A DNA stretch of 40,148 bases from Candidatus Hydrogenedens sp. (lineage in GTDB: Bacteria; Hydrogenedentota; Hydrogenedentia; Hydrogenedentales; Hydrogenedentaceae): assembly GCA_035370665.1 (NCBI GenBank), contig DAOOVZ010000003.1, forward strand, positions 1-40,148. The letters run 5' to 3'. This document shows positions 1-35,360 of this stretch, one piece after another. A program made the position numbers and the translations under genes. Position 1 is the first letter of the stretch. Every line of letters starts with the position of its first letter. The notes beneath the pieces were generated by a model. The model saw only the letters and a program-made list of their open reading frames with translations. It was not told the origin of the DNA and did not search any database.

Positions 1-1593
1 GTCAAAGGGACTAACCATATTTGATAATGAAAGGAGAAATTGTTTCATTGACTTTTTTCTTAGGTTTCGTGCACTTAGAAACACAATTTTGTCATATATC
101 CAATAACTCAAAAAAATGCTTGCAAAGAGTACTAAAAAGGAATGAAGAATAAAATCAAGTCCTTGGTAATGCCCTAAAAAATAGCCGGGAAATACACGCC
201 AAAAAATAAATCCAATGACTACATACATAGGAAGATAAAATAGTTGAATTAAAAAATAATTAGACAAACATCTTGCTTTCCGTTCTAAATGATTATAAAT
301 ATTTTCTTGCAAAAAGTTTTTTGCCCTCTCATAAAAACTCACTTTAAAATTATCAATAATTGGGGACATAATGTCTTTACGAATTTGTGCCTTATCAAGA
401 GTAAACATAAGTTCTGATTGTATTTTGCTAAGTTCATTCTCGTTTCGCTCTGAAATTTGAGAAACCATTTTTATTACAATACTGGATAGTTCTTCTTCAA
501 AGGGAGAGATTGTTTCATCTTGTTTGGTTGTAGAATAAAATTTTCTACGAATAAAATTTATCGGATTTATCTTCCCCGGCAATGACAATAAAAACTCACG
601 AAATCTTGCAATTACAAGGAACATTCCATATAAATGCGGTGCAATAAATCTTTTAAGCCAACGATAAAATGTGCCTATTTCTTTGTTAAATTCAGATTTA
701 ATTGTTTTTTCTGAATGTAATGCTAATTCTACTTTTTTATCATTTATAAATTTTTCTAATTCATTAATATAAGGTTGAATATCTTCAACAAAACTGGTAA
801 GACTGTCTATCGCATTCTTTGCTAATCCGTTCACATTACTTGTCTTTATTTGAAAAATTTTCTGCTCGGTTAATTGTTGAACAAGAAATCTTTCTAACTT
901 ATCAAAATCAAACTCATTGCCTCCTGAGGCAATTCCTAATTTTCTATCTAAAGCCCGAAGCGCATTCACACGAAAAGTAGCCAGAGGAAAGATTTGTTCA
1001 TTCTTCAATTTTTCTAGCCAATCACTCATAATGGAGTCGTCCAAACTTTCTAACCTCGTTTCTAATAGAACAAAACCCCTCTCGTTTTTCAGTTCTCGAA
1101 TCAATGACCAGGTTGCATCTTCAAGATATTTATCTTTAAAACCACATAAAATAATTAAGTCGCATTTACCAAGTACTTTTTTAACAAATTCTCGATGCTC
1201 TTTGATAACGGTATCTGTGTCAGGTGTATCAATAATAACAATATTTTCAAGAGTTGAACGAGGGATAGATATACATTCTGCTTTAAATTCTGCATTTGGT
1301 TCCCAGTCGGGAGGATGATAAATTATAGGTTTATCTGTGCAGGGTCTAAATTGAGAAGTCTTTGCTATCTTATCACCAGCAATTGCATTAATCAGAGTGG
1401 ATTTTCCAACACCTGTTCCACCAACAATGGCAATTATTAATAAAGATTCTATCTGAGCCGCACGCTCTTTTAATTCCTCTACTCGATACTTCAATTTCTT
1501 TGCAACAGGCACAAATCCTTCCCAGACCCCATTATAATTTGAAAGTGTTTCTAATTCATTAATTATATTATCCATCATTTTTACTGGGAACAT
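1..1593 (-). CDS. Dynamin-like P-loop GTPase with membrane hairpin, second of a tandem pair; partial, C-terminus runs off the window
   Basis: Not in the supplied ORF track because it is edge-truncated. I hand-translated the minus strand as MFPVKMMDNIINELETLSNYNGVWEGF... The frame stays open down to position 1. P-loop 'IAIVGGTGVGKSTLINAIAG'; G3-like 'IIDTPDTD' (about nt 1211-1235); long helical region; hydrophobic hairpin 'YFLIQLFYLPMYVVIGFIFW...FILHSFLVLFASIFLSYWIY'. The start is either ATG 1593 (AGGAGG at 1598-1603, 4 nt upstream; overlaps the upstream stop by 13 nt) or ATG 1578 (2 nt after the upstream stop). Confidence 0.75.
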   Translation of the reverse strand, partial: MFPVKMMDNIINELETLSNYNGVWEGFVPVAKKLKYRVEELKERAAQIESLLIIAIVGGTGVGKSTLINAIAGDKIAKTSQFRPCTDKPIIYHPPDWEPNAEFKAECISIPRSTLENIVIIDTPDTDTVIKEHREFVKKVLGKCDLIILCGFKDKYLEDATWSLIRELKNERGFVLLETRLESLDDSIMSDWLEKLKNEQIFPLATFRVNALRALDRKLGIASGGNEFDFDKLERFLVQQLTEQKIFQIKTSNVNGLAKNAIDSLTSFVEDIQPYINELEKFINDKKVELALHSEKTIKSEFNKEIGTFYRWLKRFIAPHLYGMFLVIARFREFLLSLPGKINPINFIRRKFYSTTKQDETISPFEEELSSIVIKMVSQISERNENELSKIQSELMFTLDKAQIRKDIMSPIIDNFKVSFYERAKNFLQENIYNHLERKARCLSNYFLIQLFYLPMYVVIGFIFWRVFPGYFLGHYQGLDFILHSFLVLFASIFLSYWIYDKIVFLSARNLRKKSMKQFLLSLSNMVSPFD

Positions 1594-3431
1594 ATATCCT
1601 CCTTTAAAACTGTCTCCGTCATAACCTGCACAACATTGAGTTCCTTAGAGAAAATCTTTTCTGCCTCTCCTTTTAATTGGTCTGCTAATTTTATATAGTC
1701 ATAAACTACACCTAAAACATTGTATAAAATTTCATCTTTCAAAATCTGGAAAAATTCTTCTCTCTTTTCTTGAACCCACTGGGCGTGTAAATTTTTTACC
1801 TCATATAAAAAATCTCTGTATGATTTGACTTCCAATAAAGCACTCCCGAGCATTGTTCCTCCCGCAATCAAGGACTGAGAAATAGATGTAAGTATAGGAA
1901 TGGTGGAATAAAGAATGGGAGTAAAAAACAGGGCTCCAGTTCCCATTCCAACAATCAGCCATGACAATAGTCTTCTTCGTTTTAGACCTTTTAATTCAGG
2001 GGACTCAAGAAATGTTTGAACGATTTTTTTAATTTCCTCCTCCATTCCTTTTGGAGTGGTTGATATTTTTTTCTCTACCCGAATCAATACATTTTTAAAA
2101 ATCTGTTCTCTCTGATTATTTAATAAATGAAGACGACCTTTTATATATTTATTCAAAGAATCTATTTCAGGAACAAAGTCAAATTTAATCAAACTTTCTA
2201 AAAAGTCTCCAACACATTTTTCAATCATTAGTTTATGCTGTTCATTAATGACAATTTCCAAATCCTTCTTTTGGCCTTCCAACCTTTTTGCTATACTGCG
2301 GTGTCCAGAAAATATAGAAGCAGGCAGTAAAACTAAATATCGGAAATAACCGATTTGCTTGCGAAGTTCAAACTCCAATTCTTTTTCTAATTGGAAACCT
2401 GCAAAAGGATTAAAATCCGCTTCAACGATTTTTCTGAGGTGATATTCGTAATTCTCTATTCTCGATTGAAAACTATTTAATTGAGGAATATATGTTTTGT
2501 TGAACCACTCGCAGAATTGTTTGTTAAACCTATCTATGGTATTTTTCATGACCTTTTCTTTAGTTTCGCGAACAGGAAAAGAGCGAATATAATCTCTCAG
2601 GTCAAGAATATTGTCTGATAAGGAAGGAATTGGTTTGTTCAAAAAATTCTCATTACGCGGATAGATTAAAAAATAAAAGCATGGGTCATCTTCATTAAGT
2701 CCTACCTCTTTCATGAAGTCCTTTATTTGTTCCTTTGTAATTTGTAGTGATTCTGGGTCATTATTATAAACCTTATTCATCACAGGAATAACAATCTTAC
2801 CTTCATAACAAGCCCTGAGAAAAAACTGCACCACTGCGTCATCTTTATACTTCACATCTACCAAAACTGCAATGATAATATCACCCGCAGATACAATTTT
2901 TTCTGCAATATCCCAATGTTCCTTCTGGATTGAATCAATATCTGGTGTATCAAGATACAAATAAGTATCGGGCAGAGTTTCATCCTCTTTTATTAAAAGA
3001 ATATCTAATGGAAGTGATTCGCTAATTGCTTCTTCTTTGTTCTCCATTTCCTTTGCGTCGAACTCAAGAAATAATTTATTTTGTAAGCACTGCTGAGCCA
3101 TATTTTTAGAAGAAATAAGAACAGGCCTCTTTGTAGCAGCAGCAAAAGGATGAACAGGAGTAAATTCCTTCTTCAACAATACATTCAATAAAGTGGATTT
3201 GCCTGTATTTGTGCCTCCTGCCACTGCAATCACAAGGCAACCTTCACCTTCCAGATGTGGTAGAATTTTGCCAAATAAAAGCCGTTCCCACAATAAATTC
3301 TCTTTAAAAATATTCTTGCTAAAATCCGAAGGTAGTAAAGATACTTTATTCTTAAATTCCCTCCATATTACTGCAAAATTTTCAATCTCGTCTACAAACA
3401 CCCTATTCATTCTTCCTATTTTATAATTCAA
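1581..3431 (-). CDS. Dynamin-like P-loop GTPase with C-terminal membrane hairpin, first of a tandem pair
   Basis: 616-aa ORF. P-loop 'AVAGGTNTGKSTLLNVL'; G3-like 'YLDTPDIDS' (about nt 2933-2956); 'PVMNKVYNND' at the G4 position; long helical region; hydrophobic hairpin 'LLSWLIVGMGTGALFFTPILYSTIPILTSISQSLIAGGTMLGSALL'. The track start is TTG 3431, which has no obvious SD. ATG 3410 (MNRVFVDE) is an alternative start. Confidence 0.75.
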   Translation of the reverse strand: MNYKIGRMNRVFVDEIENFAVIWREFKNKVSLLPSDFSKNIFKENLLWERLLFGKILPHLEGEGCLVIAVAGGTNTGKSTLLNVLLKKEFTPVHPFAAATKRPVLISSKNMAQQCLQNKLFLEFDAKEMENKEEAISESLPLDILLIKEDETLPDTYLYLDTPDIDSIQKEHWDIAEKIVSAGDIIIAVLVDVKYKDDAVVQFFLRACYEGKIVIPVMNKVYNNDPESLQITKEQIKDFMKEVGLNEDDPCFYFLIYPRNENFLNKPIPSLSDNILDLRDYIRSFPVRETKEKVMKNTIDRFNKQFCEWFNKTYIPQLNSFQSRIENYEYHLRKIVEADFNPFAGFQLEKELEFELRKQIGYFRYLVLLPASIFSGHRSIAKRLEGQKKDLEIVINEQHKLMIEKCVGDFLESLIKFDFVPEIDSLNKYIKGRLHLLNNQREQIFKNVLIRVEKKISTTPKGMEEEIKKIVQTFLESPELKGLKRRRLLSWLIVGMGTGALFFTPILYSTIPILTSISQSLIAGGTMLGSALLEVKSYRDFLYEVKNLHAQWVQEKREEFFQILKDEILYNVLGVVYDYIKLADQLKGEAEKIFSKELNVVQVMTETVLKEDICSQ

Positions 3432-3453
3432 GACGATTATTTTTGTTTAATAG

Positions 3454-4104
3454 CTATATCTGCAATTTTGGACAGGTTTCCCGAATTGTTCTCAACACAA
3501 ATTTATTAATCTTATTTTCATCATCAGGAAACATACCTACGAACCGTATTCCAATACGATTCGGACTTTCACTCAACGCTACCTGTGTTATAGAGCCGAC
3601 TAGATGAAATGGCGTCTCCTTTTCCCATTTAGCACCTTTCAAAGAGAAAAAAATATCTGCTGAGTCACCTATCTCTAATGTTTCTGGAGACTCTACCAAC
3701 ATACCACCAGCACTGATATTTCTTATTATTACCTTGATTTTATGTGGATGTGCATGGGGTTTAATTTCTGCTGGTATATTTACAGGTATTCGCCAGAAAT
3801 GCCGTAAAAACATACCAGTAGGAGAGGTTGGAAAGGCAAGTAATACTCCTTCTGAAAAGGAATGTGAAACTTCTAATACTTCTGTTGCTAGGACAAGACA
3901 ACCCTGAGAACAACATAACTCCAAATGAACATCCATTCCAGAGAATAATCTACTCAACATTGAGCCACTTGAAATACGAACATGCTCTTCCGCCACAGAT
4001 ATAACTGTTACAGGGCATAAATTTTCTTCATAACTAAGAATGCCCATTGTCCCTGGTTTTAATGCTTCTTCTAATGCCTTTTGAATTTGACTTGTATCAG
4101 TCAT
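3454..4104 (-). CDS. PilZ domain protein (c-di-GMP receptor) with YcgR-like N-terminal domain
   Basis: Both PilZ signature motifs are present with the right spacing: RxxxR as 'RHFWR', and (D/N)xSxxG as 'NISAGG' in 'IIRNISAGGMLVESPE'. About 100 aa of N-terminal domain precede them. The longest ORF starts at GTG 4116 (MKLIM), but GGAG abuts that codon. ATG 4104 (MTDTSQ) lies 11 nt after GGAG and is my preferred start. The stop is 22 nt upstream of the first GTPase gene. Confidence 0.8.
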   Translation of the reverse strand: MTDTSQIQKALEEALKPGTMGILSYEENLCPVTVISVAEEHVRISSGSMLSRLFSGMDVHLELCCSQGCLVLATEVLEVSHSFSEGVLLAFPTSPTGMFLRHFWRIPVNIPAEIKPHAHPHKIKVIIRNISAGGMLVESPETLEIGDSADIFFSLKGAKWEKETPFHLVGSITQVALSESPNRIGIRFVGMFPDDENKINKFVLRTIRETCPKLQI

Positions 4105-4238
4105 AATTAACTTCACTCCATATATTATTTTTTGTATAATTTCTATATATTCTTATATTAAACAAACTTTTGAACCAAAATTGTATTATTCATTCTAATC
4201 AAATAAGTCTCAAAATAACAAAAGGAAAAATATTTATT

Positions 4239-6851
4239 ATGTCTTCATTACCTATATTAAGTTCAGGATTACAAGAGTTAGACTATATCCTGCGTGGTTT
4301 AATTGCAGGTGATAATATAGTTTTTCGAGGCAATATTATTGATGATTATCAAAAATTTGTGCTTCCCTTTGTTCAGCATGGCTGTATAGTCGGTAGTCCA
4401 GTAGTGTATCTACGATTTGGTAATCATCCTCCTCTTGTCAAAGAAAACCAGTCTATAAAGTATGTTTTCATCAACCCAAATGAAGGATTTGAACCTTTTA
4501 TTAGTCAAGTCCATCAAACAATACAAAATACGGAACGGCGAGCCTTTTATGTTTTTGACCAATTGTCAGATTTATCCTCTTGCTGGTTTAGCGATACAAT
4601 GCTTTGCAATTTTTTTATGTTAACATGCCCTTATTTGTTTGACCGTGGTGACCTTGCATACTTTTACCTTGACCGTTCCAAACATGCACCCAAAACAATT
4701 GCACCTATTCAACAAACAGCGCAAATCATAATTGACCTTTTCAATCACGGAGGAAAGATTTTTGTTCGACCTGTAAAAGTGCAACAAAGGCATTCACCAT
4801 CTATGCACATGCTCCATCTATGGAAAAATGAGAAGATGACGCCAATTACTGAGAGTCACATTATGGCAGAGGTTTTGTCTTCAACAATGGGCACTACTGT
4901 CAGTCCAAGTGAAGGTCCTACAGATATATGGAATCGAACATTAAGAGAAGCAAAATATATTATCAAATTGGGGGATGAAACACTCAAAGATGAACTAATG
5001 CAAACAATAATACGAATGATAATTACACGAGAAGAACGGCTCGTTTCATTATTTCAAAATTATTTTACCCTTGAAGATTTAATAAAAATTGGTCAGAGAG
5101 TTATTGGGACAGGCATGATTGGCGGAAAATCAGTAGGCATGTTATTGGCACAAGCGATTTTGCGGAGAAAAAATCCAAAGTGGAACCAAAGACTTGAAAC
5201 ACATGACAGTTTTTATGTTGGTTCTGATGTCTATTACACCTTCCTTGTTAGAAATGGCTGTTGGTGGGCACGCGAGCAACAAAAGGAGTTAGAAAACTTT
5301 TTACCAGGTGCTGAACGAATTCGGAGACGCATAATTACTGGTGAATTTCCTGAAGAAATTGAACAGCAATTTGAACAGATTCTTGAATATTTTGGCTCTT
5401 CACCAATTATAGTTCGTTCTAGTAGTTTATTAGAAGATAATTTTGGGAACTCCTTTGCAGGTAAATATGAGAGTGTATTCTGTGCCAATCAAGGTTCAAC
5501 AAGACAAAGATTAGAAGATTTTAAGGCGGCAGTCCGCACGGTCTATGCAAGCACAGTTAGTGAAGAAGCACTATACTACCGAAAACGGCGAGGACTTTTA
5601 GAAAAAGATGAACAAATGGCACTACTGGTTCAGCGTGTTTCTGGTGCTCAACATGGAAAACTTTACTTTCCAAATATTGCTGGTGTTGGTTTTTCATATA
5701 ACCCTTATGTATGGTCGCCAGAGGTTAATCCGCGTGCAGGAATGGTGCGGTTAGTTTTTGGATTAGGCACACGCGCAGTAGACCGAACTGATGATGACTA
5801 TACACGGATTATTGCTTTAAATGAACCATTGAAACGCCCAGAAGTAACAGTAAAGGAACAAAAAAAATATTCTCAGCATAAAGTAGATGTAATTGACCTG
5901 GATGGAAATCGTCTTATTTCCATTCCTATTCAGGAAATAGTTCCTCAATGTGAGGGATTGCCTATAGAACTTTTTATCTCACAAGATTATGAAGCAGAAC
6001 GATATTACAGAGAGCGTGGTCAAAAAGCACCACCTATTTTGAAAATCCGATTTGACCCTCTTATAACTGAGACCTCATTTGTCCAAGATATGTGCGAAAT
6101 TCTGTCAACCCTTGAAGAGGCTTATCAAAACCCAGTAGATGTAGAATTTACGGCAAATTTTGCAGATGAAAAAGAATATTACATTGACCTTGTCCAATGT
6201 AGACCTTTGCAAGTTAGTGACCGTTCTGAATTGCTTAAAGAACCTGTAATCAAAGATGAAAAAAACATTATTATAAAAGTTGATGGTCCAATTATTGGAA
6301 GAAGCCGATTTAATCAAGTGCATCGTATTATTTATATTGTTCCTCAGGTCTATGGTGAACTCCCCATTTCTGAAAGATATGCTATAGCCCGTGCAATTGG
6401 CACTATAAACCAATCTCCACCATTAGGGATTAGCAAACCCATTTCTGTGCTTATCGGACCCGGACGCTGGGGAACAACTACCCCCTCATTAGGTGTGCCA
6501 ATTAGTTTTTCAGAGATAAGTTCAGTATCTTTTCTATGCGAAATTGTTGCAATGCGTAATGACCTGACTCCAGAAGTCTCGCTTGGCACTCATTTCTTCA
6601 GTGAACTTGTAGAATCGGACCTATTATATTTTGTTTATCTACCCGGAAAAGAAGGTCATCTATTCAACGAATCTTTACTTAATCAATTTCCAAATCAACT
6701 AAAAAAAATTTCTTCTGGATTAGCAGGACACGAAAATGCAATTAAAGTCATAGATTTCCTTCCTGAAAATAGCACATTATCTTGTTATATCTATGCCAAC
6801 ACTTTCGACCAGAAATTATTCTTATACATAAAGGAAAGTGACGAGAATTAA
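4239..6851 (+). CDS. Fusion protein: degenerate (Walker-A-less) KaiC/RecA-like N-domain plus PEP-synthase/PPDK-type ATP-grasp (PPDK_N) domain plus conserved C-terminal domain
   Basis: PPDK_N motifs: 'IGGKSVGMLLAQAIL', 'VRSSSLLEDNFGNSFAGKYESV', 'ALLVQRVSG'. The N-terminal ~200 aa follow the KaiC-like pattern ('SSGLQELDYILRGLIAGDNIVFRG'), but 'NIIDDYQKF' sits where GxxGxGKT is expected. I found no 'TSH' phosphohistidine swivel motif. C-terminal 'GPGRWGTTTPSLGVPISF...SLGTHFF'. I prefer ATG 4239 (AAGGAAAA upstream) over the track's TTG 4170. Confidence 0.7.
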   Translation: MSSLPILSSGLQELDYILRGLIAGDNIVFRGNIIDDYQKFVLPFVQHGCIVGSPVVYLRFGNHPPLVKENQSIKYVFINPNEGFEPFISQVHQTIQNTERRAFYVFDQLSDLSSCWFSDTMLCNFFMLTCPYLFDRGDLAYFYLDRSKHAPKTIAPIQQTAQIIIDLFNHGGKIFVRPVKVQQRHSPSMHMLHLWKNEKMTPITESHIMAEVLSSTMGTTVSPSEGPTDIWNRTLREAKYIIKLGDETLKDELMQTIIRMIITREERLVSLFQNYFTLEDLIKIGQRVIGTGMIGGKSVGMLLAQAILRRKNPKWNQRLETHDSFYVGSDVYYTFLVRNGCWWAREQQKELENFLPGAERIRRRIITGEFPEEIEQQFEQILEYFGSSPIIVRSSSLLEDNFGNSFAGKYESVFCANQGSTRQRLEDFKAAVRTVYASTVSEEALYYRKRRGLLEKDEQMALLVQRVSGAQHGKLYFPNIAGVGFSYNPYVWSPEVNPRAGMVRLVFGLGTRAVDRTDDDYTRIIALNEPLKRPEVTVKEQKKYSQHKVDVIDLDGNRLISIPIQEIVPQCEGLPIELFISQDYEAERYYRERGQKAPPILKIRFDPLITETSFVQDMCEILSTLEEAYQNPVDVEFTANFADEKEYYIDLVQCRPLQVSDRSELLKEPVIKDEKNIIIKVDGPIIGRSRFNQVHRIIYIVPQVYGELPISERYAIARAIGTINQSPPLGISKPISVLIGPGRWGTTTPSLGVPISFSEISSVSFLCEIVAMRNDLTPEVSLGTHFFSELVESDLLYFVYLPGKEGHLFNESLLNQFPNQLKKISSGLAGHENAIKVIDFLPENSTLSCYIYANTFDQKLFLYIKESDEN

Positions 6852-6877
6852 CATAGTCTTGCAAAGTTCAGTTTTTT

Positions 6878-6916
6878 TATATGTCATATAGGACTTATAG
6901 GACTTATAAGTCTTAT
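6878..6916. repeat. Tandem 9-bp repeat (TATAGGACT-like, 4 units) between convergent gene ends
   Basis: Units read directly: TATATGTCA / TATAGGACT / TATAGGACT / TATAAGTCT. Contains the 12-bp palindrome GACTTATAAGTC. Confidence 0.8.
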
Positions 6917-6917
6917 T

Positions 6918-7685
6918 TCATGAGTTTTTGGGCTTATACCCAGAATACAGTAGCACAGCACCACCATTAAATTCTGTCCACTGAGTTTTAACAAATCCCT
7001 CCTCGGTAAGTATCTGTAAGAAACGGTTATGAGAAGGAAATTTACATATAGTTTCAGTCAAGTAGTGATATGAAGAGAAACAACCTGTTAAAGCCCCACC
7101 TAAACATGGAAGAATATATCGCAAATAGAATAAATATGCCTTTCTCCATAATCCTTTTTGAGGCAAGCCAAATTCGAGAATTAGTAACTGTCCACCAGGT
7201 TTCAATACACGAAAAATTTCATTAAGAGCCATGCTAATCTCTGAAACATTGCGAATACCAAAAGCCATAGTTACTACATCTACCGAATCAGAGTCTATAC
7301 CTAGATTAAGAATATCCATTACTACGAAAAAGTCCCTGTCCCTATTATAATTATACTTTTCAAAACCTACTTTTAACATTTCCACTGCAAAATCAATTCC
7401 TACTGCACATCTCTGTTCAGGATAAATATTTCTAAAACTTCTTAAAACTTCACCTGTTCCTGTTGCAAGGTCTAATAAGTAGAAATCTTTTCCTTCTATA
7501 GACATATCAATCTGCTGGATAAGTTTTTTCCGCCAATATATATCCTGCCCAAATGACAATATATGATTTGTCAAATCATAGCGATATGCAATTCTATTAA
7601 AAAGTCGAAAAATTTCTCCACTCTGTCTTAACTTATGTTCTTTATTATAATTTTTTTCTATACATTCTTGTTTTACATCTTTCAT
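6918..7685 (-). CDS. ubiE: Demethylmenaquinone/ubiquinone C-methyltransferase (UbiE/MenG)
   Basis: Family-typical 'YDLTNHILSFGQDIYWRKKLI'; SAM motif I 'LLDLATGTGEV'; 'AFGIRNV'; 'RVLKPGGQLLILEF'. GGGGAGAG SD before the ATG. Confidence 0.85.
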   Translation of the reverse strand: MKDVKQECIEKNYNKEHKLRQSGEIFRLFNRIAYRYDLTNHILSFGQDIYWRKKLIQQIDMSIEGKDFYLLDLATGTGEVLRSFRNIYPEQRCAVGIDFAVEMLKVGFEKYNYNRDRDFFVVMDILNLGIDSDSVDVVTMAFGIRNVSEISMALNEIFRVLKPGGQLLILEFGLPQKGLWRKAYLFYLRYILPCLGGALTGCFSSYHYLTETICKFPSHNRFLQILTEEGFVKTQWTEFNGGAVLLYSGYKPKNS

Positions 7686-8053
7686 AATATACTCTCCCCT
7701 ACTGAATTATGAACCATATTGATTATTGAATATATACAAATCATGTTTTTTCCTAATTTACTAACAATTGTTATTTTGATTTTAACAATGTATAGCGAAG
7801 TAATTATTAATAGAAAAATTTGATGCTTTTTTGTTACTTTAATAATATAGGAATAAATTCCTTCTTGAATTTTAAATGTTTTTTTGATATAATAAGGCAG
7901 TATTATGTCGTAACTGGCGATTATAAGTGGAATAAACCACAAGGGAGCGACATTACAAATAGCCGTTCGCCTGGGCTCGTTAATAAGTGCTTTTTCAATT
8001 GAATAATATAATAACACACAATTGAATGTATTATCACCCTTAGGAGAAATTCT

Positions 8054-9139
8054 TTGGAAGTAAAAAAGACTCCACTTTTTGAATGTTGTGAGAAAGCAGG
8101 CGGTCGGTTCGTAGATTTTCACGGTTGGTATTTGCCAGTCCAATTTGAGGGGATTATTGCAGAGCATATTCATGTTCGTTCCCATGCAGGTATATTTGAC
8201 TGCTCTCACATGGGCGAATTTATCATAGATGGTAAGGACCAAATCGCCAATTTTTCCTATCTAACATGTAGCGATTTTTTACATTTACCTATTGGTCGTT
8301 GTCGTTATACTGTCTTACTAAATAATGATACTTTTATCATTGATGATTGTGTCGGAATGAAACTGGATGAAGAAAATTTATTCGTTGTTACAAATGCAGG
8401 CCCATTAGAGCAAGTTTCTTCTTTATTATGCAATTCTAGTATCCGTGCAAAGAATATTTCCAATCAAATTGTTAAAATTGATGTTCAGGGACCAATGAGT
8501 CTTGATGTATTAATTCAGTCTGGTTTCAGTCCTCAAATATCGGAACTAAAATACTGGACAGGTGGGAAATATAAATGGAAAGAGGAAGAAATTATTATAA
8601 CACGAGCAGGATATACAGGAGAATTGGGCTACGAATTATATTTACCCCCTGATTTGGGTGTAGAAATCTGGGATATACTTATATCTAACGAAAATGTAAA
8701 GCCTTGCGGTTTGGGGGCTCGCGATACTCTGAGAACAGAGATGGGCTATCCCCTTAGTGGGCAGGACCTTTTACCTGATATGACTCCGCTAATGGCTTCT
8801 ATGGACCGATTTATAGAATGGGAACATGATTTTATAGGAAAAGATAAATTACTACAACAAAAAGAGATGGGCAATTATCCTCGTTTGATGGGTATCAAAA
8901 CTTATACAAGACAGGCACCTCGTCATAATCAAAAACTTACTTTGCAAGACTGTGAAGTAGGTGTAGTTACCAGTGGAACCTTTGGTCCCAGTGTAGGAAC
9001 TGGTGTTGGTTTAGCACTATTAGACAAACAAGCCTCAAAACCAGGAACAATTTTACAAATTGTAGGTCGTCCCTTGCAAGTAGAGGTTTCCAATGTCCCA
9101 ATTTATTTAAATGGCACAGCACGAAAAAAGGTATCATAA
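8054..9139 (+). CDS. gcvT: Aminomethyltransferase, glycine cleavage system T protein
   Basis: N-terminus 'KKTPLFECCEKAGGRFVDFHGWYLPVQFEG...HVRSHAGIFDCSHMGEF' is canonical GcvT. TTG start at 8054 with AGGAG at 8043-8047. Followed by gcvH, gcvPA and gcvPB. Confidence 0.9.
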   Translation: MEVKKTPLFECCEKAGGRFVDFHGWYLPVQFEGIIAEHIHVRSHAGIFDCSHMGEFIIDGKDQIANFSYLTCSDFLHLPIGRCRYTVLLNNDTFIIDDCVGMKLDEENLFVVTNAGPLEQVSSLLCNSSIRAKNISNQIVKIDVQGPMSLDVLIQSGFSPQISELKYWTGGKYKWKEEEIIITRAGYTGELGYELYLPPDLGVEIWDILISNENVKPCGLGARDTLRTEMGYPLSGQDLLPDMTPLMASMDRFIEWEHDFIGKDKLLQQKEMGNYPRLMGIKTYTRQAPRHNQKLTLQDCEVGVVTSGTFGPSVGTGVGLALLDKQASKPGTILQIVGRPLQVEVSNVPIYLNGTARKKVS

Positions 9140-9204
9140 ATAATATGTTTTGTAATGGTAAAAAAATAATTAAAAATGCCCCAAAAATATAAGGAGAACA
9201 TGCT

Positions 9205-9585
9205 ATGTATCCAGAGGATGTTCGCTACACAGAGAATCATGAGTGGATTGGGGAAGAAGACGGACTGTATCTCATAGGTATTTCAGAGTATGCTCAGGAA
9301 CAATTGGGTGATGTGACTTATGTAGAACTACCTGAAGTAGGAAAGCATGTCCGCCAAAAAGAACCTGTGGCTCTGGTAGAATCTGTGAAAGCCGCTGAAG
9401 ATATTTATGCCCCTGTTACAGGTGTTATTGTGGAGGTAAATGAGTCGTTGGAGGGCGAGCCTGAATTGCTTAACCTTGACCCTTATGGGAGAGGTTGGTG
9501 CTTCAAAATGGATGATATTGATACGGGACAATATCGCCGATTAATGAATCGAGAAGCATACGAAAAATATCTGAAATCATTATAA
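9205..9585 (+). CDS. gcvH: Glycine cleavage system H protein (lipoyl carrier)
   Basis: 126 aa. Lipoyl-lysine motif 'VESVKAAEDIYAPVTG'. N-terminal 'YTENHEWI'. AGGAG SD 8 nt upstream. Confidence 0.92.
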   Translation: MYPEDVRYTENHEWIGEEDGLYLIGISEYAQEQLGDVTYVELPEVGKHVRQKEPVALVESVKAAEDIYAPVTGVIVEVNESLEGEPELLNLDPYGRGWCFKMDDIDTGQYRRLMNREAYEKYLKSL

Positions 9586-9693
9586 ACATTTTAGCAACAT
9601 TTATTATACTTAAACCTTTTATCATTCCTAAATTTTTTCTATTACTAATAATTATATTGAATTAAAAATTGAAGAGGTTCTGAGGAAAACATT

Positions 9694-11028
9694 ATGGCGT
9701 GGATACCTACTACAAAAAATGATGAGCAGGAAATGTTGAAAACAATTGGCGTTCCCTATATCGAATCGTTGTTTCAAGATATACCTCAATCACTTCGACT
9801 GAAATTGTGGAAGATACCTGAAGCCTTATCGGAAATAGAGACATATCAGAGATTAGAATCATTAAGTCGTAAAAATGAGGTAAACGCAATATCTTTTATT
9901 GGCGGTGGATTTTATGACCATTATATCCCAGCCGTTGTGGATTATCTTTCTCAACGCGGAGAATTTTCTACCACTTACACACCGTATCAGCCTGAATGTT
10001 CACAAGGCACACTTCAATCCATATATGAGTACCAGACAGCACTTTGTCGTTTAACTGATATGGAAGTTGCAAATGCATCGCTATATGACGGTGGAACTGC
10101 TTTATTTGAAGCGGTTATGCTCTCTGTTCGTGTAACTGGTAGACGAAAGATACACATAATTCCTGGATTAAACCCTATCTATGAACAAATGCTACGCACT
10201 CACACTGCAAATCTTGACCTGGAATTAGAGTATAGTGATGACTCTACTAATTGTGCATGTATCATTGCTGCAACACCTGATTTCTTTGGAAACTTACATG
10301 ACCTTACAGATATTGCCCAAAAATGTCACAGTGAAGGAGCACTTCTAATAGTTCAGTTCTATCCTATTTCCTTAGGACTTATGAAAACACCTGGCGAAAT
10401 GGGTGCAGATATTGCAGTAGGCGAAGGACAGAGTTTAGGATTGCCATTGGGTTTTGGTGGACCTTACTTAGGACTTTTTGCTGCAAAGAAAGAATATATT
10501 CGTAAAATGCCGGGGCGTATTTGTGCCATTACAGTTGATAAGCAGGGACAACGCGGTTTCGTCCTTACTCTACAAACGAGGGAACAGCATATTCGCCGTG
10601 AAAAAGCCATGTCAAATGTATGCTCCAATCAGGCTCTATGTGCTTTGCGTGCTCTAATTTACCTATGTGAAGTAGGTAAGAAGGGTCTCACAGAAATTGC
10701 ACAGGATTGTTTCTCAAAAACAGAATACTTAAAACAGCAATTATCTACATTTGTTCCAATAATCAATTCAAGACCTACTTTTAATGAATTTATTATACGA
10801 TTACCCATTCCAGCAGAGAAACTTATTCAAACTCTTAAAATAAAAGGTATATTAGCAGGGATTCCACTAAAATCATTATTGGAACATTGTAAAACTGAAA
10901 TACCCTGCAAAGACTGGAGTGGCACTACCTATGGAGAAGACGGGGATTTACTTATTGCAGTTACAGAAAAACGAACGCGTGAAGAGTTAGACAAACTTGT
11001 TGAAGCAATTCGCACAAGTATCTCATAG
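9694..11028 (+). CDS. gcvPA: Glycine dehydrogenase (decarboxylating) subunit 1
   Basis: 444 aa. 'FIGGGFYDHYIPAVV', 'TPYQPECSQGTLQSIYEYQT' and 'EVANASLYDGGTA' are typical of the split P-protein alpha subunit. Operon context supports the call. Confidence 0.9.
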   Translation: MAWIPTTKNDEQEMLKTIGVPYIESLFQDIPQSLRLKLWKIPEALSEIETYQRLESLSRKNEVNAISFIGGGFYDHYIPAVVDYLSQRGEFSTTYTPYQPECSQGTLQSIYEYQTALCRLTDMEVANASLYDGGTALFEAVMLSVRVTGRRKIHIIPGLNPIYEQMLRTHTANLDLELEYSDDSTNCACIIAATPDFFGNLHDLTDIAQKCHSEGALLIVQFYPISLGLMKTPGEMGADIAVGEGQSLGLPLGFGGPYLGLFAAKKEYIRKMPGRICAITVDKQGQRGFVLTLQTREQHIRREKAMSNVCSNQALCALRALIYLCEVGKKGLTEIAQDCFSKTEYLKQQLSTFVPIINSRPTFNEFIIRLPIPAEKLIQTLKIKGILAGIPLKSLLEHCKTEIPCKDWSGTTYGEDGDLLIAVTEKRTREELDKLVEAIRTSIS

Positions 11029-11039
11029 GAGCAGAAGAG

Positions 11040-12497
11040 ATGGAATTAATTTTTGAAAAATGCAATCATCGTCAGGCTTTTTCACTAGGCAAAGAGTTCT
11101 TTCCTAAAACAGAATTTCTACAAGCCCTTCAAAGAAAGACACCTGCGGAATTGCCCGAAGTATCTGAATTAGATGTAGTTCGCCACTTCACACATTTATC
11201 GCGAAGAAACATAGGAGTTGATACAAATTTTTATCCATTAGGCTCGTGCACAATGAAATACAATCCAAAAATTGCAGATGTTGTTTCATCTTTCAAAGGT
11301 TTTACACAACTTCATCCACAATTTCTCTATTCAGAGGTTTATCATGAACACATTCAGGGTGCACTGGAACTGGTTTACGGACTTGAACAATTATTGAGCG
11401 AAATTTCAGGGATGAAAGCCGTATCGCTTCAACCTATGGCAGGGGCACATGGCGAACTTACAGGGGTGCTTATAATTTCCGCATATCATAAATATTATAA
11501 AAACACACATAAAAAAACTATACTTATTCCTGATTCTGCCCATGGGACTAATCCAGCCAGTGCTGCCATTGCAGGATTTCAGGTTCAGGAGATTCCCTCT
11601 AACTCGCAGGGGACATTGGATTTGAACAGTTTCCGTGAAGCCATGAACGATAATGTTGCTGGAATTATGCTGACATGCCCCAATACTCACGGCTTGTTTG
11701 AAACAGACATTCAAGAGATTGCGGATATAGCGCACAAACACGACGCTATTCTCTATTACGATGGGGCAAACTTAAACGCTATTATGGGACAATGTCGCCC
11801 TGGTGATTTAGGTTTTGATGTCATGCACTTTAATCTTCATAAAACCTTTGGGACTCCACATGGGATGGGAGGTCCTGGTTCGGGTCCGGTTGGCGTAAAT
11901 GAACGACTACTTGAATTCCTGCCCGGTCCAAGGATAATTAAAGAGAATGATGGAAAATTTAATCTTGAATATCCAAAAAACAGTATAGGCAAAGTAGCAC
12001 CATTTTTAGGACATTTTTTGATTGCCGTCCGTGCTTATGTTTATATTCTTATGCAAGGGAGCGAAGGATTGAAAGAAGTGAGCCAGAAAGCGGTGCTTAA
12101 TGCCAATTATATCCTTGCACGACTTCATTCTGTTTTCTTACCTGCATACGACCGCCTCTGCATGCACGAATGCGTGCTTTCGGCTATGCCATTCCATGAT
12201 TACGGAGTGCATGCGTTAGACTTTGCAAAAGCCTTACTCGACCGCGGGTTTCACGCACCAACAGTGTATTTTCCATTAACAGTGAAAGAAGCACTTATGA
12301 TAGAACCCACAGAAACAGAGTCAAAAGAAACCCTTGACCAATTCTGCGACACTATGTTAGACCTTGCAGAATTAGCCAGACAAAATCCTGAAAAATTAAA
12401 GGAAGCACCTACTACCACACCTGTCCGGCGCTTGGATGAAGTTAAGGCTGCAAAAGAATTGAATGTGGTTCGCTCTGTTTCAAAATTAAAGGAATGA
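11040..12497 (+). CDS. gcvPB: Glycine dehydrogenase (decarboxylating) subunit 2 (PLP-binding)
   Basis: 485 aa. 'GSCTMKYNP'; PLP-lysine region 'HFNLHKTFGTPHGMGGPGSGPVGV'. AGGAG SD. 11 nt after gcvPA. Confidence 0.9.
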   Translation: MELIFEKCNHRQAFSLGKEFFPKTEFLQALQRKTPAELPEVSELDVVRHFTHLSRRNIGVDTNFYPLGSCTMKYNPKIADVVSSFKGFTQLHPQFLYSEVYHEHIQGALELVYGLEQLLSEISGMKAVSLQPMAGAHGELTGVLIISAYHKYYKNTHKKTILIPDSAHGTNPASAAIAGFQVQEIPSNSQGTLDLNSFREAMNDNVAGIMLTCPNTHGLFETDIQEIADIAHKHDAILYYDGANLNAIMGQCRPGDLGFDVMHFNLHKTFGTPHGMGGPGSGPVGVNERLLEFLPGPRIIKENDGKFNLEYPKNSIGKVAPFLGHFLIAVRAYVYILMQGSEGLKEVSQKAVLNANYILARLHSVFLPAYDRLCMHECVLSAMPFHDYGVHALDFAKALLDRGFHAPTVYFPLTVKEALMIEPTETESKETLDQFCDTMLDLAELARQNPEKLKEAPTTTPVRRLDEVKAAKELNVVRSVSKLKE

Positions 12498-12516
12498 ATA
12501 TAAAAAGGAATGTATA

Positions 12517-13425
12517 ATGCCCTCTCCCAAAAAAACAAAATTATTAAATGGTAATAAATTGAGCGAAATAATAAAGTTAGAGTTAAAAGAGAAAATAGCA
12601 AAACTTAAAGAAAATAGTGTTATTCCAGGATTGGCAGTGGTATTAGTAGGTGACAATCCAGCAAGCCAGATTTATGTTCGCAACAAGCGTAAAACTTGCG
12701 AAGAGTTAGGGATTCGTTCCTTTTCTTATGACCTGCCAACACAAACTTCAGAGACTGACCTAATTAAATTGATAAATGAACTTAACAATAATGGCGAAGT
12801 GCATGGAATATTAATTCAAAGCCCGTTGCCAAAACACATTAACGAAGAAAAAATCCTTACAACCATTGACCCTGATAAAGATGTGGACGGATTTCACCCT
12901 GTAAACAAGGGAAAATTACTTAATGGACAGGATTGCTTTGTGGCATGCACTCCTGCAGGTATTCAGGAACTGCTTTTGCGGTATGGATATAAAATTGAGG
13001 GAAAACATGTCGTTATTGTAGGTCGCTCCAATATTGTTGGCAAACCTTTAGCTGCCTTGCTTGTCCAAAAAGCCAGAGGTGCTGACGCAACAGTGACTAT
13101 ATGCCACTCACATACACGCAATTTAAGCAAAATAACACAAACTGCCGACATACTAGTAGCAGCCATAGGCGTCCCTGAATTTATTTGTGGCAGAATGGTA
13201 AAAAAGGGATGTATTGTGATAGATGTAGGTATGAACCGTATTCCGGACAGTTCAAAAAAATCTGGCTCGAGGCTTGTAGGTGATGTCCATTACACGAGTG
13301 TTGCTAAAAAAGTCCGGGCGATTACGCCTGTCCCGGGTGGTATTGGACCTATGACTATTGCAATGCTTATGAAAAACACTGTTAAAGCCGCCGAAAATAT
13401 TCTGAATCATAAACAAACTTTTTAA
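12517..13425 (+). CDS. folD: Bifunctional methylene-THF dehydrogenase / methenyl-THF cyclohydrolase
   Basis: 'PGLAVVLVGDNPASQIYVRNKRKTCEELGI', 'VDGFHPVNKGKL', 'GRSNIVGKPLAALL' and 'PVPGGIGPMTIAMLMKNT' are canonical FolD. 19 nt after gcvPB. Confidence 0.92.
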   Translation: MPSPKKTKLLNGNKLSEIIKLELKEKIAKLKENSVIPGLAVVLVGDNPASQIYVRNKRKTCEELGIRSFSYDLPTQTSETDLIKLINELNNNGEVHGILIQSPLPKHINEEKILTTIDPDKDVDGFHPVNKGKLLNGQDCFVACTPAGIQELLLRYGYKIEGKHVVIVGRSNIVGKPLAALLVQKARGADATVTICHSHTRNLSKITQTADILVAAIGVPEFICGRMVKKGCIVIDVGMNRIPDSSKKSGSRLVGDVHYTSVAKKVRAITPVPGGIGPMTIAMLMKNTVKAAENILNHKQTF

Positions 13426-18646: not shown

Positions 18647-21600
18647 TTATCTACTTGGTGGACCTGCACCAAATCCGTCCTCACCAGTTGGGTCTATATG
18701 ATACCCACCTAAATTGAAGAATTGGATTAATCTTAAAAGTTCTCTAAGTTCAATTTTCCAATCTTGCGAGTTGTAGTCAGAAGCATGTGGTTTACAATTA
18801 TGATTAGGACCTTCACCTACTTCATAACCGTCTTCAGTTGCATTGGGAGTTTCAGCACAATGATAACCCCAGGAATTAAAGAACTGGATTACTCGCAAAA
18901 GTTCTCGTAAGTCTATTTTCCAATTCATATCTCTATCTGCGCTATGCCATAGATATTCTTCGCCTTCGGAAGTCCCTTCTGCACTCCCTTCAATTGTTCC
19001 TTCTCCTTCTCCCTCAATTACTCCTTCTGAAACACCTTCTCCTCCTCCCTCAATTACTCCTTCTGAAACACCTTCTCCTTCTGCCAAAACGACTGTTACG
19101 GTTACAGGGTAAATAAGTGAATCCGACACACCTGAAAATGATACTAAAGCAAGGTGTTCTCCTGGACTTACTCCATCAGCACAGAATTTTATAACCACAT
19201 TCTGGCTTTGCCCTGGATTTAAATTGTAATTAGCACCAGAAATTATCTGGAAGGCTTCGGGAGGCACATTGGGTGCACTTATTACTGCATTTCCTATAAG
19301 AGCCTCTGTACTCAACTGGGAATTTGTAAGTGTAAATGTTCCTTCTTTACAATCGGCGGTAGAAACTTCACCCAATTCAAGCACATACGGCTGAATAATA
19401 GGAATCACAGAAGGTTGTTCACCTTCTGAGGAACCTTCTGGTTGAACTGGCACAAACATTGCTTTCAAAGTTGTATTTTGAGTAATACTAAACAATATGG
19501 GGTTTGACAAACCTGCAAATTGCCCATTTATTACCCAACCTTGCCATATATCCTTTGAAAAATCATAACTAACTTGTGCACTAATATTTGTTCCTTGATA
19601 ATAGTAGCCCGGGTTTAATCCTTCACTGCTTGTAGGAGATACTTGAACGGAAACGGGCGCTGTGTTGCCCTCTGTCATAATAGACAACTGATACATAGGC
19701 AAAATCTCACCTTCATTTGTCTCACTAAAACATGGTGCACCACAACCACCACCATTGCTCTTTGCGGTTGGGTCTATTGCAGACAGAACAAAGGTTATAA
19801 TACTACTGTTTGTTCCGTCAAAGGTCGCATTATACTCTGCCAGATTACATACCCTATCTCCATCTGCATCACCATACACACCTAAATACTGACTTGCTGA
19901 AGTGTCTATTTGACTATTAGAGAATGAAATCCCAATTTGAGAAGCCATTTGCCTTAATAAACTTATTGTTGTGCTGTCTCCCAGAGTGGCTATACCTGCA
20001 AAAAGCGATTTTAATTGTGCTGCAGTAATCTGAGATAAGATGGATTGTGAAATTAAACCCTGAGTCACAGCAGAATCAATAATATTTGTAAACAGAGTAT
20101 AGTTGCTTTGCCATGCAGACAATACACAACAACGATTCTGGACACCGGGATTGCCCAAAATAATATCTAATAATTGTAATTGAGCAGCCTCAACCATCTG
20201 GTTCATATCCAAATCTGCTGAAACAGAGTCAATTCCTTTCATTACACAATAAGTTTCCCATGAATTACGAGCATTTCCTTGCACGCTCGTAGTCCCACAC
20301 GAAACGATTTCACAGTGCTGTGGACAGCCGGGAATTTCGCCTTCTGTTACACCTTCAACTGTGCCTTCTACTGTTCCTTCAGGGATACCTTCACCTTCAA
20401 CACTACCCTCAGGAATTCCTTCAATAACGCCTTCTGGTTCAATACATAGAGCATAACGCGTTACATCACTCTCCTTGAAATTAGTAGGGACACCATTTCC
20501 TGCTGATATACCGACTAAACCATCGAAGGCTTCTATATTCAACCAGGATATAGCAATTCGACCGTCAAAGAACATCTCTATCTGAAAACTTGCCGTATCG
20601 CCTGTAAAATTCCCATCTACACGAACCTCGTTATAGGTAACGACAAACCTATCACTCAATTGTTTCCACCAGATTTGACCGCCATCATTAGGTTTTAAAT
20701 TGTCAAACATCCCTGAAACGCGTGGAATTCTAAAGTGCGTTTCAGTGGATTCTCCATTTGTTGTGTCACCCTCTGTGAAAGTTAGATACCCATTACTACC
20801 GATAAATACTCGGTCATAAGCCACACCATATAAAACTACCTGTTTACCATCGGCTAATGGAACTTCTACATAAGCATCGTCACCTAAATTGACTGTCGTA
20901 GAAAGCAGAGAATCTACTGGATAATCGGAAATCTGGCTTGTACAGGCAATATACTTATTAGCATTATTTGTAGGAGTCAATAACAAACGATGGTAATCTA
21001 AATCATTATCCGTTCCGAAATCTTCTGTAAACCAATCCGTTGCTGGTTGAGTAGGTGGTTCTGAAGTAAAGTTTGCTTCATAACTACTAAATGCCAGGTC
21101 AAGAGGCCCATTATAGGGAGCCCACGGTATTGTTAATATGGGTAAAGAATAATTAAGTCCAAAAATTTTTATAAATACAGTAGGATAAAAATTCACAGAT
21201 AGAACCAGATTACAAATTTCATTGTAATTCATTATAGTCCGATAGCCATTTTCTCCTACTTCTACTGGCACAGATTGTCCTTCTGTCCAGAACAATAATC
21301 CCTCCTGCAAACTGATGGTATCACATTCTAAAGAGCCATCTGTGGTTGTAGAAGCATCTATTCCTGCACCAGCAGAAAAAGGTATCCAACTCAACCATGA
21401 TGGCAAAGTTACCCCTATCAGTCCTAATATTGTATCAACTAAATCTACATTAAATAAATTTGTTTTGGGAGTCGCATCTTGAAGAACAGATGTGGATTCA
21501 AGTAAGAAACTATTGAAATAATCATATTTACTCGCCCTGAGATTTACATCAGGCACATAGGGAATATCTACTACAAATGGGTCTATAATTCCTAAATCAA

Positions 21601-25855: not shown

Positions 25856-26608
25856 TTAGTTGGCTAAAGAGAGTGATTTGCATAAGTTGAAAAAATTTTC
25901 TTTTTGCTGGGCTACTTCCTTATCTGTGCCTGTCATTTTAATAAATAGTGTGTGATTTTCCAGGGGACAAACTGTGCCTAATAAACGATGATTTTTAAAA
26001 GTATTTCCTTGCATATCTATATAATCACCGCTAATATCCAACACTTTGCATGATTTCCCCAGAATAGTAATTTCAGGCAACTGTGAAAGGGATTGAACAT
26101 TTATGTTTGTTTTTCCCATCTGGCTTGCCCAACGATTAAAATTTGCTTCAACTCCACCTGCCTGAGCCGTAAGCACACTTATATAACATTCCCAACTTGA
26201 ACCTTCACCCCCTGTAAATGTAACTATACGCATTGGTTTACCCCTATCCTCCTGCCAGCCGTCAGGTGTCTGCCAGATTAAATTTAATTGAGCAAATCCA
26301 CCAACCACAGAATTAGGAGTATTTGCTCCTTCATTTCCATCAAGGGCTTCTTCTACTTTCTGTGGAATTTGTGATTGTGGATTTGCTAATTGCGATTCTT
26401 CGCTCTGATTTGATACAGAATCTATATCATTAGGAACGAGAGGAACGAGTCGTAGTCGTTGAGGAACTGGCAAAGGAGTGACAGAATTATTTGATTGAGG
26501 GGTGGTAAATTCCCTCTTTGTTTTTATTTCTACTCTTTCAGGCTGGGAACATCCTACATAAATACACAATAAAAAAATTATCAGAAGTATTTTTATTCTA
26601 TTTTTCAT
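25856..26608 (-). CDS. Lipoprotein of unknown function (conserved C-terminal domain with 'NFNRW' motif)
   Basis: Lipobox 'LLCIYVGC|SQ'. Pro/Ser/Gln-rich linker. C-terminal ~140 aa 'WQTPDGWQEDRGKPMRIVTF...GGVEANFNRWASQMG'. No CxxC. 19 nt upstream of ccsB on the same strand. Confidence 0.7.
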   Translation of the reverse strand: MKNRIKILLIIFLLCIYVGCSQPERVEIKTKREFTTPQSNNSVTPLPVPQRLRLVPLVPNDIDSVSNQSEESQLANPQSQIPQKVEEALDGNEGANTPNSVVGGFAQLNLIWQTPDGWQEDRGKPMRIVTFTGGEGSSWECYISVLTAQAGGVEANFNRWASQMGKTNINVQSLSQLPEITILGKSCKVLDISGDYIDMQGNTFKNHRLLGTVCPLENHTLFIKMTGTDKEVAQQKENFFNLCKSLSLAN

Positions 26609-35292: not shown

Positions 35293-35360
35293 AATTCCTC
35301 GTAATTAAAATATAAATTGTGATACTCTATTTCTATAATATTATATTAAAGGGAAGACCT

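Follow-up and report, generated by a model that had tools for sequence, protein, structure and literature searches.

Operon-paired bacterial dynamin-like proteins (DLPs) are an established kind, with Campylobacter DLP1/DLP2, mycobacterial IniA/IniC and Streptomyces DynA/DynB as examples and the DynA of Bacillus subtilis as a fused pair. In Streptomyces, DynA is cytoplasmic and DynB is membrane-anchored, and the two act on FtsZ rings and septation. Paired bacterial DLPs are widespread, and their cellular roles and regulation are mostly obscure. PilZ proteins of the YcgR/MotI type, which are adaptors for the second messenger cyclic diguanosine monophosphate (c-di-GMP), work through binding partner proteins, and PilZ adaptors are often encoded far from their targets. 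Dynamin-like GTPases have been connected to c-di-GMP in Escherichia coli, where RdcA together with its partner RdcB activates the cyclase DgcE (PMC6510439, PMC13463826), and to phage resistance in B. subtilis, to which DynA contributes (PMC12998192). Here we discuss a locus in Candidatus Hydrogenedens sp. (Hydrogenedentota; GCA_035370665.1, contig DAOOVZ010000003.1, positions 1 to 40,148) in which the gene for a PilZ c-di-GMP receptor is followed by those of two dynamin-like GTPases, GTPase-1 (G1) and GTPase-2 (G2). The whole of this 40,148-nucleotide (nt) stretch is called the window. A preliminary description, made from the letters of the window, had picked out the locus as its best candidate for an undescribed system; the GTPase pair belongs instead to the established kind just described, and the PilZ gene joins it in one genus.

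The three genes are co-oriented on the minus strand and fill the first 4.1 kb of the window. The open reading frame (ORF) of PilZ spans 3454-4116 with a GTG start, and an ATG at 4104, preceded by GGAG, gives a protein of 216 amino acids (aa; 3454-4104). The latter is the start chosen by gene callers in L001, a 52.6-kb metagenome contig from the Joint Genome Institute that is near-identical to the window and whose PilZ and G1 proteins are identical to the window's (L numbers denote loci or contigs, and P numbers proteins). G1 has a choice of a TTG at 3431 (1581-3431) and an ATG at 3410 behind AGGAAG; the ATG is the start called in L001, gives 609 aa (1581-3410), and leaves a spacer of 43 nt to the PilZ stop at 3454. 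The G1 stop is a TAA at 1583-1581. The G2 ATG at 1593 sits 7 nt past AAAGGAGG (AGGAGG), a Shine-Dalgarno sequence, and the overlap between the G2 start and the G1 TAA is 13 nt; an alternative ATG lies at 1578. The window contains the first 531 of the 558 codons of G2 (1-1593). Its missing C-terminus was recovered from L001 (12512-14188), where the full protein has 558 aa, 27 residues more than the window copy, and shows a few differences from that copy in its C-terminal part. The packing of the three genes and both candidate starts of G2 are thus as the preliminary description had placed them.

A promoter/terminator scan of the window found no terminator-like hairpin at either gene junction, and Rfam scans at the locus found no c-di-GMP riboswitch and no other RNA. 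PilZ, G1 and G2 are probably co-transcribed in the window, and from the arrangement of the two reading frames we infer that G2 is translationally coupled to G1. The promoter for the three genes probably lies within 4105-4238, the intergenic region that separates PilZ from the divergently transcribed gene of a PPDK_N-like protein. The top minus-strand sigma-70-like match in this candidate promoter region is TTGAGA-17-AATAAT at 4213-4185 (10/12); in the promoter scan, promoter-like sites were no more numerous than in shuffled sequence. Two plus-strand ORFs, at 917-1318 and 3193-3426, are nested in the GTPase genes and were rejected as genes, there being no support for them.

Both GTPases match Dynamin_N and MMR_HSR1 above the Pfam gathering scores applied (27 and 21.9 bits, respectively): G1 with 41.2 and 32.5 bits, and G2 with 39.5 and 38.1 bits. 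The precomputed Pfam assignments of the orthologues of both agree (Dynamin_N). When the profiles of G1 and G2 were compared (hhalign), the match had a probability of 99.2% and an E-value of 1e-19, and on such sequence grounds the two are paralogues, an anciently duplicated heterotypic pair. The AlphaFold2 model of G1, with a predicted local distance difference test score (pLDDT) of 81.6, consists of a G domain with a run of long helices behind it. All of the best PDB matches of the model (Foldseek) are large GTPases of the dynamin superfamily: Drp1, BDLP (2j69), DLP1/2 (5owv/5oxf), Fzo1, SynDLP, OPA1, IniA (6j72) and MFN are at the top, and dynamin-1 and MxA are matched as well. The probability is 1.00 for each, with E-values of 4e-8 to 1e-4 over 470-840 aligned columns; global template modelling scores (TM-scores) are low, about 0.24, as expected of hinged multi-domain proteins. 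Sequence-profile searches of the PDB with G1 and G2 gave matches at the level of the P-loop only, to EngA/Der, Era, septin and BDLP, and a coiled-coil match to the dynamin-1 stalk. Because sequence profiles reach no farther than the P-loop of known structures, the family was assigned from Pfam and the predicted fold; for G2, we infer the dynamin fold through its profile homology to G1.

The nucleotide-binding motifs are conserved but unusual. The P-loops are invariant in the orthologues (GGTNTGKST in G1 and GGTGVGKST in G2), and so is the threonine of the second G motif (T100 in G1 and T86 in G2). The third motif (here the G3 motif) reads DTPDIDS in G1 and DTPDTDT in G2, or DTPD(I/T)D(S/T) where DxxG is usual, the glycine being replaced with an invariant aspartate in both paralogues. 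The G4 motif is NKxx or TKxx (NKVY in the window G1), without the specificity aspartate in either paralogue.

Each GTPase has a hydrophobic region at a position that is kept across its orthologues. That of G1, at about 488-540 (residue numbers of the hairpin and the model refer to the 616-aa version with the TTG start), with hydrophobic windows at about 475-520 across the orthologues, is moderate by hydropathy, and in the model it forms the turn of a helical hairpin (H478-510/H515-593). That of G2, at about 440-505, comprises segments at ~447-465 and 478-504 and is more hydrophobic than its counterpart in G1; its Kyte-Doolittle peaks of up to 3.1 suggest true transmembrane segments, and the two segments probably form a transmembrane hairpin. 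The layout of a bacterial dynamin-like protein that had been proposed for both GTPases, with an N-terminal G domain, a helical region and a hydrophobic hairpin, is hence borne out.

The pair is a common possession of the phylum. When one genome per GTDB species was scanned, 133 relatives of G1 came to light; 80 loci were retained, nearly all of them titled Hydrogenedentota. G2 directly follows G1 in 72 of these 80 species-level loci, usually with stop and start overlapping (median estimated overlap ~24 nt). Of the others, five are cut off by the end of the contig, G1 and G2 are separated by ~1.3 kb in two (L020 and L056), and in one (L039) no G2 could be detected in the 9 kb downstream of G1. 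All-against-all clustering of the ORFs around 82 loci, many clusters of which were shadow ORFs of the GTPase genes, found no conserved third gene; GHMP kinase, with 19 loci, and an unannotated ~550-aa protein, with 14, made up the largest real non-GTPase clusters. GHMP kinase also accounts for 10 of the 61 same-strand ORFs upstream of the pair that were scanned with Pfam. Outside the window organism the neighbours of the pair include Thx-rpsL-rpsG-fusA, GHMP kinase and SurA-like genes, and the surroundings vary. In close relatives (L003, L004, L005, L007, L087 and L091) the pair lies directly upstream of Thx-rpsL-rpsG-fusA (the str operon), and in the window organism two N_methyl/SBP_bac_10 (DUF1559) pseudopilin-like genes follow G2 (L001:14296-16378). 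Since the 3' side of the pair differs between the window organism and its str-operon relatives, a rearrangement has taken place there. The constancy of the G1-G2 linkage in variable, housekeeping surroundings argues for a vertically inherited core gene pair of Hydrogenedentota and not for a defence island, as far as gene order can tell. A ribosome-associated GTPase, which the MMR_HSR1 matches and the adjacency to the str operon might recall, was considered and rejected: the dynamin-type fold extends over the full length, hydrophobic hairpins are present, and most of the phylum has lost the str operon as a neighbour.

Those homologues that carry a name belong to Candidatus Hydrogenedens and the phylum Hydrogenedentota. 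Many metagenome-assembled genomes (MAGs) with a Hydrogenedentota-type pair, including L003, L008, L012 and L013, are titled 'uncultured Nitrospirales/Nitrospiraceae bacterium' (binchicken, SRP co-assemblies), and single records of pair-bearing MAGs are titled 'FCB group' or 'Rhodothermaeota'; these titles are probably taxonomic mislabels of the records. In an exhaustive profile search, 171 representative proteins fall within E<=1e-30 and 1071 within E<=1e-10. Verrucomicrobiota and Planctomycetota contain full-length relatives (E 1e-45 to 1e-100), whose genes were solitary in both of the contexts examined there. A solitary G1-type homologue in a Thermoguttaceae MAG (L095) begins 2 nt past a restriction-modification gene of the MmeI type, with a GmrSD gene ~3 kb away (features at 3189-7833 and 11173-12891), a defence-like setting unlike that of the Hydrogenedentota loci.

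The PilZ protein is well conserved within its narrower range. It matches Pfam PilZ with 45.6 bits (gathering score 22.5; E 9.5e-12). Its c-di-GMP motifs are RHFWR at residues 101-105 and NISAGG at 129-134, and R101, R105, N129, S131 and G134 are invariant in an alignment of 14 orthologues, which includes the three that are not coupled to the GTPases. The AlphaFold2 model (pLDDT 83) has an N-terminal beta-barrel, a C-terminal PilZ barrel and then a C-terminal helix. Over its full length it matches MotI/DgrA (5vx6, E 1.5e-10), YcgR (5y6f), VCA0042/PlzD (2rde), MrkH (5kgo) and PlzA (7mie) in Foldseek, and a profile search of the PDB retrieved YpfA/MotI (5vx6) at 3e-5. Given the Pfam match, the invariant motifs, the two-barrel model and the full-length structure matches, the protein is by sequence and model a canonical stand-alone c-di-GMP adaptor of the YcgR/MotI type, with c-di-GMP binding predicted. 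The presence of both motifs had been noted before; among the Pfam families that the preliminary description had named for the three proteins, Dynamin_N, MMR_HSR1 and PilZ are matched, but the PilZN/YcgR model has no match in the PilZ protein.

The linkage of PilZ to the pair is confined to one genus. PilZ orthologues form 14 clusters only, all at least 50% identical and all from Candidatus Hydrogenedens. The order PilZ-G1-G2 is kept in about nine Hydrogenedens lineages (window/L001, L003, L004, L005, L007, L087, L089, L091 and L093, with L004 being Candidatus H. terephthalaticus), with PilZ-G1 spacers of 36-70 nt. No PilZ gene is found upstream of the pair in ~70 other pair-bearing Hydrogenedentota genomes; in the upstream Pfam scan, PilZ makes up 6 of the 61 ORFs, all six from the close clade. 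The linkage is missing in L006, L008, L009 and every more distant locus. The close relative L006, whose G1 is 46% identical, has the pair with a divergent FGGY kinase upstream in place of PilZ.

PilZ also occurs apart from the pair. L086 and L090 both retain the divergent arrangement of the PPDK_N-like gene and PilZ, without an adjacent GTPase; in L086 the following genes are on the opposite strand, and in L090 the PPDK_N-like gene is frameshifted. A third PilZ gene (L083-85) stands alone, and the same MAG has G1-G2 without PilZ on a separate contig (L008). A neighbour-joining tree built from the PilZ proteins places the uncoupled P0050 and P0052 as sisters among coupled lineages and the uncoupled P0057 as sister to the coupled P0056, so that the linkage was lost at least two times. 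The c-di-GMP motifs are intact in P0050, P0052 and P0057. The genomes therefore do not show PilZ in synteny with the pair at every locus of the pair or of a PilZ orthologue: the gene order proposed to be conserved in relatives holds for about nine lineages of one genus and fails in the ~70 other genomes, in L006 and for the three uncoupled PilZ genes. As read from gene order, the pair does without PilZ in most of its range, and PilZ persists without an adjacent pair. Functional coupling of PilZ to the pair is possible on this evidence, which neither refutes nor establishes it.

We favor, with a probability of about 70%, the reading that G1 and G2 are a heterotypic DLP pair, vertically inherited throughout the phylum and with a housekeeping role at the membrane, and that PilZ is a lineage-specific neighbour. 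G2 would be anchored in the cytoplasmic membrane via its transmembrane hairpin, and G1 would associate with the membrane through the less hydrophobic hairpin, or paddle, in which its helical bundle ends. By analogy with the family, nucleotide-dependent pairing of the G domains would give rise to G1-G2 complexes that tether, fuse or stabilise the membrane. The job of the pair would be a housekeeping one, such as membrane repair or division support, as may be the case for Campylobacter DLP1/DLP2, B. subtilis DynA, IniA/IniC and DynA/DynB. Within the Hydrogenedens clade PilZ would have come to lie upstream of the pair, and in the window the divergent promoter region (~4105-4238) would drive a common transcript of the three genes.

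Several points weigh against this reading. The placement among the dynamins depends on Pfam and on a predicted fold with a global TM-score of 0.24. The activity of the pair is deduced from that of the family. GTP hydrolysis and nucleotide specificity are uncertain because the G3 glycine is replaced, giving DTPD, and the G4 aspartate is missing. Finally, the short spacer and the retention of PilZ-G1-G2 in lineages whose proteins are ~50% identical are in keeping with a real functional tie between PilZ and the GTPases.

The alternative that survives best leaves the GTPases as they are and gives PilZ a different partner. It holds that PilZ serves another target (the PPDK_N-like enzyme, a motility apparatus or a pilus machine) and that its adjacency to the pair is a historical accident; we consider it possible, if rather unlikely. 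The PPDK_N-like protein is encoded divergently from PilZ at 4239-6851 (plus strand; 870 aa as called, or 893 aa from a TTG at 4170). Its sole Pfam match is PPDK_N (1.3e-54), an ATP-grasp domain, at residues 316-696; its ~300-aa N-terminal and 190-aa C-terminal parts have no match in Pfam. Across the genus its identity is 71-78%, which greatly exceeds that of PilZ or the GTPases, and its gene adjoins PilZ about as often as the GTPase genes do. That this neighbour stays with PilZ in L086 and L090, from which the GTPases are gone, speaks for such a target, as do the nearest structures of PilZ, the flagellar brake or clutch proteins MotI and YcgR, the general habit of PilZ adaptors to be encoded apart from their targets, and the pseudopilin-like genes that follow the pair in the window organism. 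However, the PPDK_N-like gene is not next to PilZ in L089 and L083, no flagellar or pilus motor gene is present in the 40-kb window, and divergent neighbours share a promoter region and not a transcript.

A second alternative makes one module of the three proteins, as the preliminary description had proposed: a PilZ adaptor was recruited into a core DLP-pair operon in Candidatus Hydrogenedens, and c-di-GMP-bound PilZ docks on G1/G2 and switches their assembly or membrane remodelling on or off. The genes lie on one strand with the short spacer, the 13-nt overlap and no terminator-like site between them, and the order has been kept in about nine lineages, whose proteins are 46-57% identical. The invariance of the c-di-GMP-binding motifs and the partner-binding habit of the YcgR/MotI-type PilZ proteins, to which the fold points, are in keeping with gating, and RdcA is an example of a dynamin-like GTPase that can join a c-di-GMP circuit (PMC6510439, PMC13463826). 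The parts list of this proposal is thus correct. But the adjacency on which it was built is confined to one genus and was lost repeatedly: the pair lacks PilZ in the ~70 other genomes and in close relative L006, three motif-intact PilZ orthologues have no adjacent GTPase while the MAG or lineage has the pair elsewhere, PilZ is linked to the PPDK_N-like gene about equally often, and at such a phylogenetic depth synteny may simply be inherited, even where no function connects the genes. A reading at the level of a system exceeds the evidence because the synteny is genus-restricted and repeatedly lost, and we regard gating of the pair by PilZ as unlikely.

It is quite improbable that the GTPases are signalling switches that sense GTP as RdcA does and act on the c-di-GMP network, with feedback through PilZ. 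The RdcA precedent exists (PMC6510439, PMC13463826), and the non-canonical G3 and G4 motifs could mean a slow, sensor-like GTPase. Against this, no diguanylate cyclase (GGDEF) or MASE1 gene is found in the window or in the L001 flank, RdcA is soluble whereas G1 and G2 have conserved hydrophobic hairpins, and no RdcA/YjdA model is among the matches of G1 and G2, the only one of its kind being a 17-bit match to the model of CrfC, an E. coli dynamin-like GTPase.

In PADLOC, LeoA (9e-8) and LeoBC (8e-8) are matched, with best scores of 29.6 and 29.9 bits. The best stretches are 61-87 and 65-127 of G1 and 29-152 and 36-81 of G2; three of the four are the P-loop region only, and the longer protein stretches map to short profile segments. 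Membership of the Eleos/LeoABC family was rejected on account of these weak matches within the N-terminal G domain and a distribution that is not patchy. That the locus is an anti-phage dynamin defence system of the Eleos/LeoABC kind with PilZ as its sensor, a form of the defence option that the preliminary description had raised and for which one could cite these matches, the contribution of B. subtilis DynA to phage resistance (PMC12998192) and the Thermoguttaceae homologue that abuts MmeI near GmrSD, is very improbable, since the matches of ~30 bits stop at the G domain, the pair is inherited phylum-wide at syntenic housekeeping positions (the str operon in close relatives) and not in patchy islands, and the window has no other defence genes.

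The preferred reading, a housekeeping DLP pair with PilZ as a neighbour in one lineage, has consequences of its own. A phylum-wide, putatively translationally coupled and membrane-anchored DTPD pair would be a clean natural case for a heterotypic DLP with a housekeeping role. The non-canonical G3/G4 signature that it has in common with Actinobacteria deserves attention, and so does a possible PilZ-GTPase interaction. If PilZ does gate the pair, this would be the first second messenger to directly control a bacterial dynamin-like membrane-remodelling machine, and would invert the E. coli arrangement, in which the synthesis of c-di-GMP is under the control of the dynamin-like GTPase RdcA; if PilZ binds the GTPases, the three proteins would form a simple system to reconstitute. 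The chief value of the analysis is nonetheless negative: the gene order that motivated it is confined to one genus and can be broken, and the locus is no defence island.

The remainder of the window is ordinary chromosome, with gcvT-H-P, folD, dnaX, cytochrome c assembly (ccs), dinB and a hybrid kinase. A ZMP/ZTP riboswitch (RF01750; 62 bits, gathering score 39) at 7900-7983 on the plus strand is directly 5' of gcvT-gcvH-gcvPA-gcvPB-folD (8054-13425), and a minus-strand ORF of 186 aa at 7682-8242 that overlaps the riboswitch is probably no gene. A large bacterial signal recognition particle RNA (RF01854, 165.7 bits) is found at 26805-27073 on the plus strand, with dnaX (27110-28966) immediately 3' of it. 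Four ORFs have no match in Pfam at E<=1e-5: 18647-22513 (minus strand, 1288 aa), 35319-38282 (plus strand, 987 aa), 25856-26608 (250 aa) and 32012-32758 (248 aa).

How, then, do the parts of the locus compare with systems already described? The PilZ protein is closest to YcgR, MotI (DgrA, YpfA) and PlzD, with YcgR and MotI/YpfA being its best structural and sequence matches. It is equal in length to YpfA (216 aa each) and shares the architecture of two beta-barrels, in which RxxxR lies at the linker between the domains and NxSxxG within the PilZ barrel. It differs in having no Pfam PilZN/YcgR match and no flagellar genes nearby, and in that its orthologues are restricted to one genus. The Eleos and LeoABC systems also have paired dynamin-like GTPases, to which the weak PADLOC matches point. 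The window proteins, however, match them at ~30 bits in the N-terminal G domain only, and the pair is phylum-wide, not patchy, and in a housekeeping context.

E. coli RdcA (YjdA)/RdcB-DgcE resembles the locus in that a dynamin-like GTPase and a partner are wired into c-di-GMP signalling. The direction is opposite, from GTPase to cyclase in E. coli as against a receptor gene beside GTPases here, and RdcA is soluble, RdcB is no GTPase and no PilZ protein is involved. Our search of the literature found no description of a PilZ receptor linked to a DLP, nor of a Hydrogenedentes dynamin of such an arrangement. The novelty claimed for the locus is to be qualified in one respect, in that a connection between DLPs and c-di-GMP as such is known from RdcA/RdcB-DgcE (PMC6510439, PMC13463826).

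The G3 signature of the pair has a counterpart in actinobacterial 'dynamin family' proteins, the sole examined relatives outside Hydrogenedentota that were both checked for it and found to have it; they carry D[TA]PDIDS and are 21-32% identical to G1 over part of the length. Such proteins are core in Streptomyces (about 535 aa, with thousands of matches). The Streptomyces proteins are apparently tandem, the first with its P-loop lysine near 71-73 and the second type with a long disordered N-terminus and the lysine at ~118-140. The published mutants of Streptomyces are DynA K74 and DynB K129 (bioRxiv 10.1101/2025.06.23.661029), and the closeness of the lysine positions is a lead that the D[TA]PDIDS proteins may be DynA and DynB. 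The signature may define a distinct DLP clade, which would then include Streptomyces DynA/DynB. The two pairs are alike in that one partner is apparently anchored in the membrane more firmly than the other, and differ in that Hydrogenedentota are not filamentous sporulating bacteria.

The closest class remains that of Campylobacter jejuni DLP1/DLP2, Nostoc BDLP, DynA and IniA/IniC. As in this class, two paralogous large GTPases are encoded in one operon, each combining a Dynamin_N G domain with a helical bundle that has a hydrophobic tip for membrane binding, and the predicted model of G1 matches the structures of DLP1/DLP2, BDLP and IniA over its full length. The differences are that the sequence similarity of G1 and G2 to the class is restricted to the P-loop, that they are shorter (558-609 aa), that they carry DTPD for DxxG and lack the G4 aspartate, that G2 has apparent true transmembrane segments, and that the pair is Hydrogenedentota-wide, with a PilZ gene upstream in one genus. 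G1 and G2 are a strongly divergent, uncharacterised instance of the operon-paired bacterial DLPs.

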